Below, piece after piece: positions 1 through 8,457 of a DNA stretch of 64,000 nt (the first letter of the stretch is position 1; every line of letters starts with the position of its first letter). Origin of the DNA: Escherichia coli (GTDB lineage Bacteria; Pseudomonadota; Gammaproteobacteria; Enterobacterales; Enterobacteriaceae); the NCBI RefSeq assembly GCF_045037415.1, contig NZ_CP173438.1, one strand, 5' to 3'. A program made the position numbers and the translations under genes. The notes below the pieces were generated by a model. The model was given only the letters and a program-made list of their open reading frames with translations, made no database searches and had not been told where the DNA came from.

Positions 1-868
1 AATGCCTTCTTTTGCTGGCGTACGCTTCGAAATGGGTAACGACGGCTGGCACAGTTTTCTGGCGTTAAACGATGAATCCGCCAGCGTAGATGCCAGTTTC
101 GATTTTATGCCGGTATGGAACAGTATGCCTGCCGGAGCCAGCTTCTGTGTGGCGGTGCCGTATTCACACGGTATTGCCGAAGAGATGCTTTCGCACATCA
201 GCCAGGAAAACGACAAGCTGAATGGGGCGTTAGACGGTGGCGCGGGGCTGTGCTGGTATGAAGACTCAAAATTGCAAACCCCACTGTTTGTTGGTCAGTT
301 TGATGGCACTGCCGAACAGGCGCAATTGCCAGGGAAACTGTTTACGCAAAATATTGGTGCGCACGAAAGCAAAGCGCCAGAAGGTGTTTTGCCGGTAAGC
401 CAGACTCAGCAGGGCGAAGCGCAAATCTGGCGTCGCGAAGTGAGTTCCCGATACGGTCAGTATCCGAAAGCGCAGGCGGCGCAACCCGATCAATTAATGT
501 CGGATTATTTTTTCCGCGTGTCGCTGGCGATGCAAAACAAAACGCTGCTTTTCTCCCTCGATGACACGCTGGTTAATAACGCCCTGCAAACACTGAATAA
601 AACCCGCCCGGCAATGGTGGATGTAATACCCACTGATGGCATCGTTCCGCTCTATATCAATCCACAAGGAATGGCGAAACTGCTGCGTAACGAAACGCTG
701 ACCAGTCTGCCGAAGAATCTCGAACCGGTTTTTTATAACGCCGCACAAACTTTATTAATGCCGAAGCTGGACGCTTTATCTCAACAACCGCGTTATGTCA
801 TGAAGCTGGCCCAGATGGAACCCGGTGTCGCCTGGCAGTGGCTACCCATAACCTGGCAACCGCTATGA
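1..868 (+). CDS. yfaA: DUF2138-family protein YfaA, C-terminal part (5' end lies outside the window)
   Basis: ORF open from the window edge to the stop at 866-868; first gene of the conserved yfaA-T-S-Q-P cluster by synteny; stop overlaps the next start (ATGA at 865-868). Confidence 0.75.
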
Positions 869-1488
869 GACACGGGCTGCTGGCGCTGATTTGCTGGCTG
901 TATTGTGTTGTTGCCCATAGCGAAATGCTAAATGTCGAACAATCCGGGCTGTTTCGCGCGTGGTTTGTGCGCATTGCACAGGAACAGCTCCGCCAGGGGC
1001 CAAGCCCACGCTGGTATCAGCAGGATTGTGCGGGCCTGGTGCGATTTGCGGCGAACGAGGCGCTGAAAGTTCACGACAGTAAATGGCTAAAAAGTAACGG
1101 TTTATCTAACCAGTATTTGCCGCCAGAGATGACGCTAACACCTGAACAGCGTCAACTGGCGCAAAACTGGAATCAGGGGAATGGGAAAACCGGCCCCTAT
1201 GTGACCGCGATTAATTTGATTCAGTACAACAGCCAGTTTATTGGCCAGGACATAAACCAGGCACTGCCTGGCGATATGATTTTTTTCGATCAGGGCGATG
1301 CCCAGCACTTAATGGTCTGGATGGGGCGTTACATCATCTACCACACCGGAAGCGCCACGAAAACTGACAACGGAATGCGCGCAGTCAGTCTGCAACAACT
1401 TATGACATGGAAGGACACCCGATGGATACCCAACGATTCCAATCCCAATTTCATTGGCATTTATCGTTTAAATTTTCTGGCGCGATAG
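865..1488 (+). CDS. yfaT: DUF1175-family secreted protein YfaT
   Basis: ORF track 838..1488; preferred start at 865 ([19 protein letters not shown], signal-peptide-like) coupled to the yfaA stop; synteny with yfaS. Confidence 0.75.
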
Positions 1489-4400
1489 CAGCGTGCTTGT
1501 CCCTGTCTCTTGTGGGAACAGGGCTTGCTAATGCTGAGGATTCGCTTCCTTCCAGTAACTATGTGCCGCCCGCCGGGGGAACATTCTTTTTGCTCGCTGA
1601 CAGCAGTTTTAGCAGCAGTGAAGAGGCGAAAGTGCGACTGGAAGCGCCGGGGCGTGATTATCGGCGCTATCAGATGGAAGAGTACGGCGGCGTGGACGTT
1701 CGCCTGTATCGTATTCCTGACCCGATGGCATTTTTGCGCCAGCAGAAAAACCTGCATCGCATTGTGGTGCAACCGCAATATCTGGGCGACGGACTGAACA
1801 ATACGCTGACCTGGCTGTGGGATAACTGGTACGGCAAATCTCGCCGCGTGATGCAGCGTACTTTCTCTTCTCAGTCACGGCAGAATGTGACTCAGGCGTT
1901 ACCCGAATTACAGCTCGGTAATGCCATTGTTAAACCTTCCCGTTATGTACAGAACAGCCAGTTTTCACCGCTGAAAAAATATCCACTTGTGGAACAGTTC
2001 CGCTATCCACTATGGCAGGCAAAACCGGTCGAGCCGCAGCAAGGGGTAAAACTGGAAGGCGCATCCAGCAATTTCATCTCGCCGCAGCCGGGCAACATCT
2101 ATATTCCTCTCGGCAAACAAGAGCCGGGACTGTATCTCGTCGAAGCGATGGTGGGTGGGTATCGGGCGACGACGGTGGTGTTTGTTTCCGATACCGTGGC
2201 GCTTAGCAAAGTGTCAGGTAACGAGCTTCTGGTGTGGACCGCGGGGAAAAAACAGGGTGAAGCGAAGCCCGGCTCAGAGATCTTGTGGACTGACGGTCTT
2301 GGCGTGATGACCCGCGGTGTGACCGATGGCAGCGGTACCTTGCAGTTACAACATATATCGCCAGAACGTTCATACATTCTGGGTAAGGATGCTGAAGGCG
2401 GCGTTTTTGTCTCCGAGAACTTTTTCTACGAAAGCGAAATCTACAACACCCGCTTGTATATCTTTACCGATCGCCCGCTATATCGCGCAGGCGATCGTGT
2501 CGATGTTAAAGTGATGGGTCGCGAGTTCCACGATCCGTTGCATTCATCCCCCATCGTCAGCGCACCGGCGAAGCTTTCGGTGCTGGACGCCAACGGCAGT
2601 CTGTTGCAAACCGTCAATGTCACGCTGGATGCGCGTAATGGCGGGCAGGGGAGTTTCCGCCTGCCAGAAAATGCCGTCGCCGGAGGTTATGAGTTACGTC
2701 TTGCTTACCGCAAACAGGTCTATAGCAGCAGTTTTCGCGTGGCAAACTACATCAAACCCCATTTTGAGATTGGTTTAGCTCTCGACAAAAAAGAGTTCAA
2801 AACTGGCGAAGCGGTCAGCGGCAAACTGCAACTGCTTTACCCGGATGGCGAGCCGGTAAAAGATGCCCGCGTGCAGTTAAGTTTGCGCGCTCAGCAATTA
2901 TCAATGGTCGGTAACGATTTGCGTTATGCCGGACGTTTCCCGGTGTCGATGGAAGGCAGTGAAACGGTTTCCGACGATAATGGTCATGTGGCGTTGAATC
3001 TCCCCGCCGCCGATAAACCGAGCCGTTATTTGTTAACCGTCTCCGCCAGTGACGGCGCGGCGTATCGAGTTACCACCACCAAAGAGATCCTCATTGAACG
3101 TGGCCTGGCGCATTACTCTTTAAGTACCGCCGCACAATACAGTAATAGCGGCGAGTCGGTTGTGTTCCGTTATGCCGCGCTGGAATCTTCAAAACAGGTT
3201 CCTGTTACGTATGAATGGTTGCGTCTCGAAGACCGCACGAGTCACAGCGGAGAGCTACAGTCAGGCGGCAAATCCTTTACCGTCAATTTCGCTAAACCTG
3301 GCAACTACAATCTGACATTACGCGATAAAGACGGCTTAATTCTCGCCGGGTTAAGCCATGCAGTCAGCGGTAAGGACAGCACGTCGCATAGTGGTACGGT
3401 AGATATCGTGGCAGATAAAACACTGTATCAGCCTGGCGAAACCGCGAAGATGCTGATTACCTTCCCGGAGCCAATTGACGAAGCATTATTGACGCTGGAA
3501 CGCGATCGCGTGGAACAGCAGTCGCTGCTATCGCATCCGGCAAACTGGCTAACGCTACAACGTTTAAACGATACCCAGTATGAAGCCCGCGTACCGGTGA
3601 GCAATTCCTTTGCGCCTAACATCACTTTTTCGGTGCTGTATACCCGTAACGGTCAGTACAGTTTTCAGAACGCCGGGATTAAAGTTGCCGTTCCCCAGCT
3701 GGATATCCGGGTGAAAACGGACAAAACCCATTACCAGCCTGGTGAACTGGTCAATGTCGAATTAACCTCGTCGCTGAAAGGTAAACCTGTTTCTGCGCAG
3801 TTAACGGTAGGCGTGGTCGATGAAATGATCTACGCGCTGCAACCGGAAATCGCGCCGAATATCGGCAAATTTTTCTATCCGCTGGGGCGTAACAATGTGT
3901 GTACCAGCTCCAGTCTGTCGTTTATCAGCTACGATCAGGCGCTCTCCAGCGAGCCGGTTGCGCCTGGCGCGACTAACCGCAGCGAGCGGCGAGTAAAAAT
4001 GCTGGAACGTCCACGGCGTGAAGAGGTGGATACCGCGGCCTGGATGCCGTCACTCACAACCGATAAACAAGGCAAAGCGTATTTCACGTTCCTGATGCCT
4101 GATTCGTTAACCCGCTGGCGCATCACCGCGCGTGGGATGAACGGCGACGGGCTGGTCGGGCAGGGGCGTGCTTATTTGCGTTCGGAAAAAAATCTCTACA
4201 TGAAGTGGAGTATGCCAACGGTATATCGCATGGGTGACAAACCGGCGGCAGGACTGTTTATCTTCAGTCAGCAGGATAACGAACCGGTGGCGCTGGTGAC
4301 TAAATTTGCAGGTGCTGAGATGCGCCAGACGCTGACGCTGCACAAAGGGGCGAATTATATTTCGCTGACGCAGAATATTCAGCAATCTGGCTTGTTAAGT

Positions 4401-7676: not shown

Positions 7677-7680
7677 TGCT

Positions 7681-8457
7681 ATGCGAAAGATTTTTCTTCC
7701 GTTGTTACTGGTGGCGCTTTCGCCTGTCGCTCACAGTGAAGGTGTGCAGGAAGTCGAGATTGATGCACCGCTCTCTGGCTGGCATCCGGCAGAGGGCGAA
7801 GATGCCAGTTTTTCACAAACGATCAATTACCCGGCGTCGTCCGTCAACATGGCAGATGATCAAAATATCTCAGCGCAGATCCGCGGCAAAATAAAGAATT
7901 ATGCTGCGGCGGGTAAAGTTCAGCAGGGCCGGCTGGTGGTCAACGGTGCCAGTATGCCGCAGAGAATTGAATCAGATGGTTCTTTTGCACGCCCTTATAT
8001 TTTCACTGAAGGCAGCAACAGCGTGCAGGTCATCAGCCCAGATGGGCAAAGCCGACAAAAAATGCAGTTTTACTCAACGCCGGGTGCTGGGGCGATTCGC
8101 GCGCGTTTACGGCTGGTTCTCTCCTGGGATACGGACAATACCGACCTCGATCTTCATGTCGTTACGCCTGACGGTGAACATGCCTGGTACGGTAACACAG
8201 TGCTGAAAAACAGTGGCGCACTGGATATGGATGTCACGACAGGGTACGGACCCGAGATTTTCGCCATGCCAGCGCCAGTTCACGGCCGTTATCAGGTGTA
8301 TATCAACTACTTCGGCGGGCGCAGTGAAACGGAATTAACTACGGCCCAACTGACGCTGATCACCGATGAAGGGTCGGTCAATGAGAAACAGGAAACTTTT
8401 ATTGTACCGATGCGTAATGCTGGCGAGCTGACGCTGGTGAAAAGTTTTGACTGGTGA
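7681..8457 (+). CDS. yfaP: DUF2135-family secreted protein YfaP
   Basis: 258-aa ORF, 4 nt after yfaQ; signal peptide MRKIFLPLLLVALSPVAHS; last gene of the cluster. Confidence 0.85.
   Translation: MRKIFLPLLLVALSPVAHSEGVQEVEIDAPLSGWHPAEGEDASFSQTINYPASSVNMADDQNISAQIRGKIKNYAAAGKVQQGRLVVNGASMPQRIESDGSFARPYIFTEGSNSVQVISPDGQSRQKMQFYSTPGAGAIRARLRLVLSWDTDNTDLDLHVVTPDGEHAWYGNTVLKNSGALDMDVTTGYGPEIFAMPAPVHGRYQVYINYFGGRSETELTTAQLTLITDEGSVNEKQETFIVPMRNAGELTLVKSFDW

Follow-up and report, generated by a model that had tools for sequence, protein, structure and literature searches.

What does a large macroglobulin, encoded together with four partner proteins, do for Escherichia coli? The question is raised by the cluster yfaA-yfaT-yfaS-yfaQ-yfaP, which occupies positions 1-8457 of a 64,000-nucleotide stretch of E. 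coli DNA (assembly GCF_045037415.1, contig NZ_CP173438.1; the whole stretch is referred to below as the window). A preliminary description of this DNA had recognized the five genes, and their identity was borne out by the Pfam assignments and the gene order. Its further statements that the function is unknown, that the partner proteins are without a role and that the system had been noted only bioinformatically proved to be out of date: the mag operon of Pseudomonas aeruginosa has been studied experimentally, and the cluster is an already known kind of system, the ordinary E. coli copy of that operon.

The Pfam profiles along the locus followed the order DUF2138, DUF1175, A2M (alpha-2-macroglobulin) domains, DUF2300 with SpoIID, and DUF2135. 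The P. aeruginosa operon magABCDEF (PA4492-PA4487) encodes MagB (COG4685, 64 kDa, with one membrane helix), MagC (24 kDa), the macroglobulin MagD, MagE (62 kDa) and MagF (28 kDa), as well as MagA, a paralogue of MagF (PMC3735191); it thus holds the same five families in the same order as the E. coli cluster. Judged by size, family and gene order, the correspondence of YfaA to MagB, YfaT to MagC, YfaS to MagD, YfaQ to MagE and YfaP to MagF is essentially certain. The match of YfaT to MagC from the PDB (entry 7BK8, chain A) reached 77% identity (143 of 186 residues, E 1e-104). For P. aeruginosa itself only MagC (77%) and MagE (53%) entered the comparison, the remaining identities referring to other Pseudomonas species; the median values of the E. 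coli proteins against Pseudomonas were 74% for YfaT, 54% for YfaP, 54% for YfaQ, 53% for YfaS and 44% for YfaA. In both systems the DUF2138 protein has a membrane helix and the soluble members have signal peptides (in E. coli as predicted by the heuristic described below), while the sixth gene, magA, is present in P. aeruginosa and absent from the Enterobacterales loci, E. coli included. In Pseudomonas, the operon is controlled by GacA/RsmA.

The central protein, YfaS, is encoded here by a single uninterrupted frame of 1534 codons, as had been noticed before. It matched MG2 at 344-440 (E 6e-19), A2M_BRD at 661-806 (E 1e-14), A2M at 871-953 (E 4e-12) and bMG10 at 1409-1517 (E 1.5e-5), and it was collinear over its full length with the homologues from Pseudomonas species other than P. 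aeruginosa (52-55% identity, tblastn). No Pfam thioester domain was matched, and a regular-expression search of all 1534 residues gave no CxEQ motif, in agreement with the earlier assignment to the non-thioester type. In the BLASTP alignment with K-12 YfhM (also named ECAM) the segment PYGCLEQTASGLFP placed GVIN of YfaS (G1069-N1072) opposite CLEQ; this is a weak local piece (E 0.10), collinear with the remainder, and the residues P1066, G1068, V1070, T1073, S1075, L1077 and P1079 around GVIN are invariant in the YfaS family. YfaS is, as far as its sequence tells, a type II (thioester-less) bacterial alpha-2-macroglobulin and not one of type I. The type I proteins YfhM of E. coli and Sa-A2M of Salmonella are, like YfaS, large periplasmic proteins with multiple macroglobulin (MG) domains and a bait region, and the MG domains of YfhM and YfaS can be aligned (22% identity, E 6e-8), also around the thioester-domain motif. 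In contrast to YfaS with its GVIN and no conserved lipobox, type I proteins have CLEQ, trap covalently and are lipoproteins. They are paired with one gene, pbpC (encoding PBP1c), while YfaS has four dedicated partners, although both types are genetically linked to a peptidoglycan-related protein with a fold of the penicillin-binding protein (PBP) type. A PDB sequence search with YfaS gave only complement C5, weakly (E 3e-4), and no MagD-type structure.

The function has been studied by experiment on the Pseudomonas orthologues. The Mag products form an inner-membrane complex in P. aeruginosa (PMC3735191), in which MagA, MagB and MagF each bind MagD 1:1, in binary or ternary complexes, and MagB is required for the stability, the membrane association and the processing of MagD from 165 to 100 kDa (PMC5764988), being its inner-membrane anchor (PMC3735191, PMC5764988). 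When a site for the tobacco etch virus (TEV) protease was engineered into the MagD bait, the protease was trapped non-covalently after bait cleavage (PMC5764988). Furthermore, a CRISPR interference screen showed a protective effect of the mag operon, and of magD in particular, in P. aeruginosa against the peptidoglycan-targeting type VI secretion system (T6SS) effectors VgrG3 and Tae1, of which the former is lysozyme-like, while the status of the latter as an amidase or a peptidase is called unclear by the authors (PMC12663445). Complex formation, trapping and the T6SS phenotype have thus been demonstrated in P. aeruginosa alone, and we infer their transfer to E. coli from the orthology.

On this basis the Mag system of E. 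coli is, in our estimation, somewhat more probably than otherwise an inner-membrane-tethered, peptidoglycan-associated macroglobulin trap that guards the periplasm and the cell wall from incoming hydrolases. YfaA, held in the inner membrane by its N-terminal helix, would carry and stabilize the 165-kDa YfaS, to which YfaP would also bind, and YfaT, being NlpC/P60-like, would link the assembly to peptidoglycan. Once the bait of YfaS (NRSER, residues 852-856) had been cut, the protein would close on the attacking enzyme and hold it non-covalently, without a thioester, and the cell wall and periplasm would be shielded from hydrolytic enzymes, for example the T6SS effectors with which competitors attack peptidoglycan.

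The bait deserves separate consideration. The experimentally determined bait of MagD is ANRSERG, residues 847-853 (PMC5764988), and that of E. coli YfaS reads TNRSERR; the core NRSER is therefore common to both systems, which also share the lack of a thioester. Residues N852, R853, S854 and R856, together with the following V-K-x-L-E-R-P-R-R-E, were kept in at least 97% of 79 sequences, and the conservation of the region 841-870 was 0.73 against a whole-protein mean of 0.56. The baits of classical macroglobulins are variable. This bears on an earlier view of the system as a host-directed colonization factor (PMC5764988, PMC3735191), according to which the complex mainly neutralizes host proteases reaching the periplasm, such as neutrophil elastase or gut proteases, and the peptidoglycan partners only position it. 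The MagD bait is indeed cut by chymotrypsin, trypsin and papain (PMC5764988), strains lacking MagD were reported to be less virulent in a chronic infection model (cited in PMC5764988), and the window is identical to human isolates of sequence type 131 (ST131), though nearly all E. coli carry the cluster. However, the only loss-of-function phenotype with a defined attacker concerns bacterial peptidoglycan-targeting T6SS effectors (PMC12663445), the cluster occurs widely among the Pseudomonas of soil and plants, species without an animal host, and broad capture of host proteases would lead one to expect variable baits, whereas this one is invariant. Such a role is compatible with the peptidoglycan-associated trap rather than exclusive of it, and as the main function we consider it unlikely.

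Among the partners, full-length YfaA (taken from an identical strain) matched DUF2138 with E 5e-286; NCBIfam PRK11410 (positions 271-560 of 560), the sole NCBIfam match for the five proteins, was uninformative. Its N-terminus MSGEKKAKGWRFYGLVGFGAIALLSAGVWAL has a basic start followed by a hydrophobic run of 19 residues, resembling the membrane helix of MagB, and looks like a signal anchor. YfaT matched DUF1175 (E 8e-59) and, weakly, NlpC_P60 (E 1e-3), and its 77% identity to the 7BK8 crystal structure indicates an NlpC/P60 fold. Of the five proteins YfaT is the best conserved: 117 of its 207 residues were kept in at least 97% of 81 sequences, and Cys55, His148 and His160 were invariant in all of them. 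In PMC10318531, MagC/DUF1175 is cited as an inactive, peptidoglycan-binding relative of NlpC/P60. YfaP has a predicted signal peptide followed by two beta-sandwich domains, of which the C-terminal one is rich in Asp (W149-D-T-D-N-T-D-L-D-L-H159); the comparison of its profile with the PDB returned nothing meaningful.

YfaQ is predicted to consist of three modules. Its family is small: a search of 1.84 billion representatives gave 290 clusters at E<=1e-3, from which 64 members with 28-68% identity were aligned; 21 columns of this alignment were invariant, and the AlphaFold2 model built from it had a predicted local distance difference test score (pLDDT) of 94.5 and a predicted template modelling score (pTM) of 0.90. 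Pfam recognized two DUF2300 repeats and a SpoIID match, and a PDB search with the single YfaQ sequence gave no match. In a Foldseek search with the model, the best 50 matches were all beta-lactamases, PBPs or a DD-endopeptidase. The predicted layout is a signal peptide (1-19), a class D beta-lactamase/PBP-like module (about 20-245), a beta-rich linker (about 255-321), a SpoIID-like module (about 322-450; about 313-450 by another delimitation) and an HExxH module (about 452-549).

In the first module the motif GSxWK was present in 63 of the 63 covering sequences (as GSLAK in one), the E. coli context being P-L-G-S-L-W-K-L. With the family profile, SxxK stood opposite GSvFK and SCG opposite SCN of Clostridioides difficile PBP3 (7RD0, E 0.16), and the only match in an hhalign comparison of YfaQ with E. 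coli PbpC set GSLWK...ALVRSCG against GSVLK...ALVRSLN (E 0.003, probability 10%). K195 and T196 were found in 64 of 64 sequences, followed by F, W or Y. The domain, about 225 residues long and 8-15% identical to class D beta-lactamases, BlaR1/MecR1 sensors and PBP transpeptidases, is like them in having SxxK on the equivalent helix (P-x-G-S-x-W-K-L) and K-T on the equivalent strand, but it has S-C-G and K-T-[FWY] in place of their SxN/SxV and K-[TS]-G.

The family profile also matched the SpoIID structures 4RWR (E 6e-4), 5I1T and 5TXU, and the comparison with NCBIfam SpoIID_LytB gave E 2e-4; the SpoIID signature at the N-terminal side (Y..GV..E...EA.KAQA.AARTY) was recognized as well. E334, D369, Q374 and R375 were invariant (64/64), E334 lying opposite the Glu of ASEM/AGEM in the SpoIID structures, which we take to be the catalytic residue. 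The Glu of V-x-x-x-E and the D..Q pair of the SpoIID/LytB and SleC lytic transglycosylases are likewise invariant in YfaQ; in contrast to these enzymes, only the core of the SpoIID fold was matched, it is flanked by the PBP-like domain and the HExxH module, and the hosts are non-sporulating Gram-negatives. In the C-terminal module H520, E521 and H524 were present in 64/64 sequences, and E536 (61/64) and E540 (58/64) lie on later helices. Position 530 (7614-7616) is His in 52/64, which results in HExxHxxxxxH with a metzincin-like spacing, and Tyr in E. coli and its enterobacterial relatives; in the enteric branch, Tyr530 may indicate that the binding of metal has changed or disappeared. Among the sequences of the PDB, the C-terminal profile came closest to the minigluzincin MJ1213 (4QHF), at a non-significant E of 0.12, with a strand and 'laHExlHl' in register, a helix and a three-stranded sheet before HExxH and Glu-bearing helices after it. 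Minigluzincins (MJ1213/projannalysin) are soluble models of M48/M56 peptidases, such as the protease domain of BlaR1. The assignment of this module to minigluzincin-type zinc peptidases is suggestive only.

Eight Cys residues of YfaQ were invariant in 77 closer homologues, while in the diverse set of 64 four were invariant and two nearly so; together with the signal peptide, the conserved Cys residues argue for a periplasmic location. MagE was earlier proposed to be a chaperone or an aid to signal-peptide removal (PMC5764988), and the literature searched for 'DUF2300' contained an unrelated mention only. Going beyond this literature, the modelled YfaQ/MagE looks like a cell-wall enzyme. In the trap proposed here it would not be a chaperone but a secreted, peptidoglycan-directed protein acting transiently on the cell wall or on YfaS, with modules that would address the stem peptide (PBP/class D beta-lactamase-like), the glycan strand (SpoIID-like) and a metal-dependent site (the C-terminal HExxH); any such activity is extrapolated from fold and motifs. 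Some E. coli database entries of 670-870 amino acids fuse YfaQ to MG2 or DUF2138 domains; these are most likely frameshift or gene-calling artefacts at the yfaS/yfaQ junction.

The same features of YfaQ would also suit a different machine, one for the response to peptidoglycan damage or its repair, in which YfaQ and YfaT would work on damaged peptidoglycan and the macroglobulin, rather than being the effector, would itself be regulated, with cleavage of its bait, possibly by the metal site of YfaQ, as the activating event, in parallel to type I A2M and PBP1c. Besides the fold and motifs of YfaQ, such a machine would agree with the invariant bait, with the observations that MagD in P. aeruginosa is always partly processed from 165 to 100 kDa and that a magE deletion alters the MagD forms (PMC5764988), with the specificity of the protection for peptidoglycan-targeting effectors (PMC12663445) and with the position of type I A2M genes next to pbpC. 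However, any activity of YfaQ/MagE or MagC is hypothetical, MagE was reported to be cytoplasmic and not stably bound to MagD, the HExxH domain is assigned by topology and an E of 0.12, the frequent third His at position 530 is Tyr in E. coli, and the 165 to 100 kDa cleavage depends on MagB; we regard this alternative as rather improbable. A narrower version of the idea, that type II systems have in YfaQ/MagE their missing enzymatic or sensing component, whose BlaR1/OXA-like serine, SpoIID-like and small M48/M56-like zinc-peptidase modules respond to damaged peptidoglycan by cleaving the bait of YfaS/MagD (165 to 100 kDa) or by remodelling the wall, is a speculative proposal to which we likewise give little credence. 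Were it true, both macroglobulin types would be coupled to a peptidoglycan protein of PBP fold, PBP1c in type I and YfaQ in type II.

Whether YfaS can reach the periplasm depends on where its translation starts. Signal peptides were called with a heuristic of our own, not with a trained predictor (not SignalP). By this heuristic the N-termini of YfaT, YfaS, YfaQ and YfaP, all described earlier as signal-peptide-like, open with basic residues, continue with a hydrophobic stretch and end in a small-x-small site before an acidic residue, with putative cleavage at AHS/E, ANA/E, TLA/E and AHS/E, respectively; for YfaS this holds only with a start at ATG 1422 or 1407, and not at GTG 1512 (5012 of the ST131 locus), the start given by RefSeq and its annotation pipeline PGAP, which lies inside the hydrophobic core and removes the export signal. 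The K-12 annotation of yfaS begins at the equivalent of ATG 1422, a codon located 67 nt within yfaT with GGAAGGA 6 nt upstream. Most Pseudomonas loci have an ATG overlapping the yfaT stop (CGATGA), which opens a signal peptide of 20-26 residues, while the same spot reads CGATAG in Escherichia (ATA+TAG) and CGATAA in Superficieibacter (ATA+TAA), the ancestral ATG having been lost. With that ATG gone in Escherichia, ATG 1422 is the sole remaining in-frame start giving an export signal, and relative to Pseudomonas magD the start is displaced 63 nt upstream into yfaT (from -4 to -67, as counted from where the yfaT stop ends). All lineages have this ATG with its Shine-Dalgarno sequence, since both lie in codons for the invariant YfaT peptide W-K-D-T-R-W. 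From these comparisons we infer that ATG 1422 is the real start of yfaS and that the PGAP start is wrong. A lipobox-like I22-A-A-C25 occurs inside the signal peptide (1485-1496). A lipoprotein reading of YfaS was rejected, the motif probably not being a lipoprotein signal: Escherichia sp. E1V33 has Tyr instead of C25, and most of the Pseudomonas signal peptides compared lack the Cys.

The distribution of the cluster demonstrated that the intact state, presented before as noteworthy, is the norm in E. coli. Of 5426 complete genomes, 5422 contained the cluster; the region was found at 95-100% identity in 5404 of the 5426, and 5355 had at least 80% of it. The statement in the preliminary description that K-12 carries yfaS as a pseudogene was correct (b4500): K-12 differs from the window by 302 substitutions without any indel, and the gene is interrupted by the single TGA at codon 1368. 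The 31-mer centred on this TGA was found in 364 of the 5426 genomes and the TGG version in 1412; the 25 sampled from the 364 were all K-12-type or laboratory-like, including W3110, C600, MC4100, XL1-Blue and MG1655, so the nonsense allele appears to belong to the laboratory lineage. Beyond E. coli, YfaT was searched against a single genome from each species; 216 relatives were obtained, and the best 80 loci were kept. The five genes are conserved together, contrary to what the preliminary description had named as a refutation: the order A-T-S-Q-P was found in every one of the 80 loci long enough to display it, and of three metagenomic contigs with YfaQ relatives of about 30% identity, two carried DUF2138, MagC, A2M, DUF2300 and YfaP_C in order and the third (5 kb) covered the downstream part only. 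An additional YfaP-like gene (magA) was located upstream in 70 loci, all from Pseudomonas, and in none of the seven from Enterobacterales (Escherichia, Superficieibacter, Enterobacillus, Yersinia alsatica). A recent horizontal transfer between Pseudomonas and Escherichia was rejected, the other four proteins being 44-54% identical and the guanine-cytosine content of the region (0.50-0.59) unremarkable; the sequence comparison instead points to a much stronger constraint on YfaT as the source of its high identity.

In Escherichia albertii NBRC 107761 the yfaA gene (8307-10001 of its locus) carries TAG in frame in place of the Gln codon (CAG) of E. coli, at about codon 343 (codon 345 of a translated stretch that begins two codons before the ATG), with the remainder of the cluster looking intact; this is either a strain pseudogene or a sequencing error. 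With the K-12 nonsense codon, this TAG in a representative genome, the loss of the ancestral yfaS start in Escherichia and the lack of an export signal in YfaS as started by RefSeq, the cluster might be viewed as a dispensable relic in E. coli, inherited, no longer useful and decaying as in K-12. This is highly improbable, considering the five intact frames here, the identity and coverage of the region across the species, the restriction of the K-12 allele to K-12-type and laboratory strains among the 25 sampled, the invariance of catalytic-type residues across genera and the alternative start with a good Shine-Dalgarno sequence, which restores the signal peptide.

Several points weigh against the peptidoglycan-associated trap as the function of the E. 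coli cluster. The MagA paralogue is missing in E. coli; K-12, whose YfaS is truncated, shows normal growth, which makes the system dispensable under laboratory conditions; and no experimental paper on E. coli yfaS, yfaQ, yfaT, yfaA or yfaP was found in the open-access literature. The protection observed in P. aeruginosa concerns a lysozyme-like effector and Tae1, not a classical protease, so that protease trapping may not be the relevant activity, and the invariant Arg-rich sequence of the bait seems no less suited to a dedicated cleavage event than to broad capture. The MagC family is cited as inactive (PMC10318531), though its Cys and His residues are conserved. In YfaQ the second and third PBP motifs are degenerate (SCG, KT[FWY]), and the domain could be a binding module instead of an enzyme; moreover, MagE was reported in the cytoplasmic fraction and without a stable MagD complex (PMC3735191, PMC5764988), which sits badly with a periplasmic enzyme. 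Finally, a sigma-70 scan of the 148-bp spacer between gyrA and yfaA detected no promoter-like site.

The layout of the locus is that of a compact unit (Table 1). Analysis of the open reading frames in window positions 1-8457 gave five frames without internal stops, all on the plus strand, and confirmed the co-direction and the junctions described before: yfaA and yfaT overlap in an ATGA start/stop (865-868), yfaT and yfaS overlap by 67 nt in a different frame (1422-1488), the TAA of yfaS abuts the GTG of yfaQ (6024-6029), and yfaQ and yfaP are separated by 4 nt (7677-7680). Position 1 of the window falls within yfaA, of which 288 of 562 codons are inside. The window DNA is 100% identical across 8.6 kb to many ST131 chromosomes, and in such a genome yfaA is complete (562 codons) and begins 148 bp downstream of gyrA. 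The hairpin beyond yfaP (minimum free energy -22.2 kcal/mol, z -5.25, with 0 of 200 shuffles folding equally well) is probably a bidirectional intrinsic terminator ending the operon. No excess of terminators was found within the cluster (12 terminator-like matches against 12.8 expected in shuffled sequence). The overlapping or abutting junctions, the lack of an internal terminator excess and the strong terminator after yfaP make a single operon yfaA-T-S-Q-P the best-supported arrangement, as far as such signals can be read from DNA. No Rfam model matched window positions 1-9000 at the gathering score, and the PADLOC defence models gave zero matches.

The Shine-Dalgarno region of yfaA, about 840 bp upstream of window position 1 (2664-2677 of the ST131 locus), reads ACACAAGGAAUGUG and shows conservation among E. 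coli, E. whittamii and E. albertii. It resembles what we take to be the CsrA/RsmA binding consensus, RUACARGGAUGU; a stable CsrA-type hairpin at this site was considered, but folding gave it no support (z about 0). A(N)GGA at the Shine-Dalgarno position also occurs in the leaders of Pseudomonas magA, the mag operon being RsmA-regulated. Convergent with the yfa cluster, as in K-12, the minus strand of window positions 8531-12377 holds frames of 394, 440, 216 and 220 amino acids corresponding to atoB, atoE, atoA and atoD, the acetoacetate/short-chain fatty acid operon.

Table 1. Features of the yfa (mag) locus, in window coordinates.
Feature	Position	Strand	Remark
yfaA, C-terminal 288 codons (DUF2138)	1-868	+	Stop 866-868; frame open from window edge
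yfaT, 207 aa (DUF1175, family now named 'MagC')	865-1488	+	NlpC/P60-like, predicted periplasmic
yfaS, 1534 aa, type II alpha-2-macroglobulin (by sequence)	1422-6026	+	Uninterrupted frame; Pfam; MagD orthologue
Predicted Sec signal peptide of YfaS, 38 residues (MDTQRF...GLANA/EDS)	1422-1535	+	From ATG 1422
Bait core N852-R-S-E-R856 of YfaS	3975-3989	+	Equivalent of MagD bait ANRSERG (847-853)
GVIN, G1069-N1072 of YfaS	4626-4637	+	Aligned to CLEQ of E. coli YfhM/ECAM
yfaS codon 1368, TGG (Trp)	5523-5525	+	In-frame TGA in K-12, the sole K-12 disruption
yfaQ, 549 aa, MagE orthologue	6027-7676	+	GTG start
SxxK, S60-L-W-K63 of YfaQ	6204-6215	+	N-terminus of model helix 58-72; position of the acylated Ser in PBPs/beta-lactamases
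S108-C109-G110 of YfaQ	6348-6356	+	Position of SxN (second PBP motif); S and C in 64/64; Asn replaced by Gly
K195-T196-W197 of YfaQ	6609-6617	+	Position of KTG (third motif); model strand 191-199; assigned by topology
E334 of YfaQ, in Y326..R329-V330..R333-E334	7026-7028	+	Opposite Glu of SpoIID V(V/L)AxEM
H520-E-Y-L-H524 of YfaQ	7584-7598	+	HExxH; model helix 511-525, after a helix and three strands
yfaP, 258 aa (DUF2135/YfaP_C), MagF orthologue	7681-8457	+	
Hairpin with flanking A run and U run, 45 nt	8486-8530	.	Between convergent yfaP and atoB; missed by simple terminator scan

With the kind of system known, the interest that remains in this locus lies in the prediction for YfaQ, the invariant bait, the correction of the yfaS start codon and the status of K-12 as a natural yfaS mutant. 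The RefSeq start of yfaS would mislead both localization predictions and the design of expression constructs. Owing to the single-codon defect of yfaS in K-12, screens based on this strain are blind to the Mag system, while restoration of TGA to TGG at codon 1368 should restore it. For a system whose study has so far been confined to P. aeruginosa, E. coli could be a tractable host; all five genes are intact in natural isolates, ST131 among them. The prediction of a cell-wall function for YfaQ would fit the protection by MagD from peptidoglycan-targeting T6SS effectors, and it makes the role of a partner protein, a matter left open since the first descriptions of type II macroglobulins, addressable by a few point mutants.

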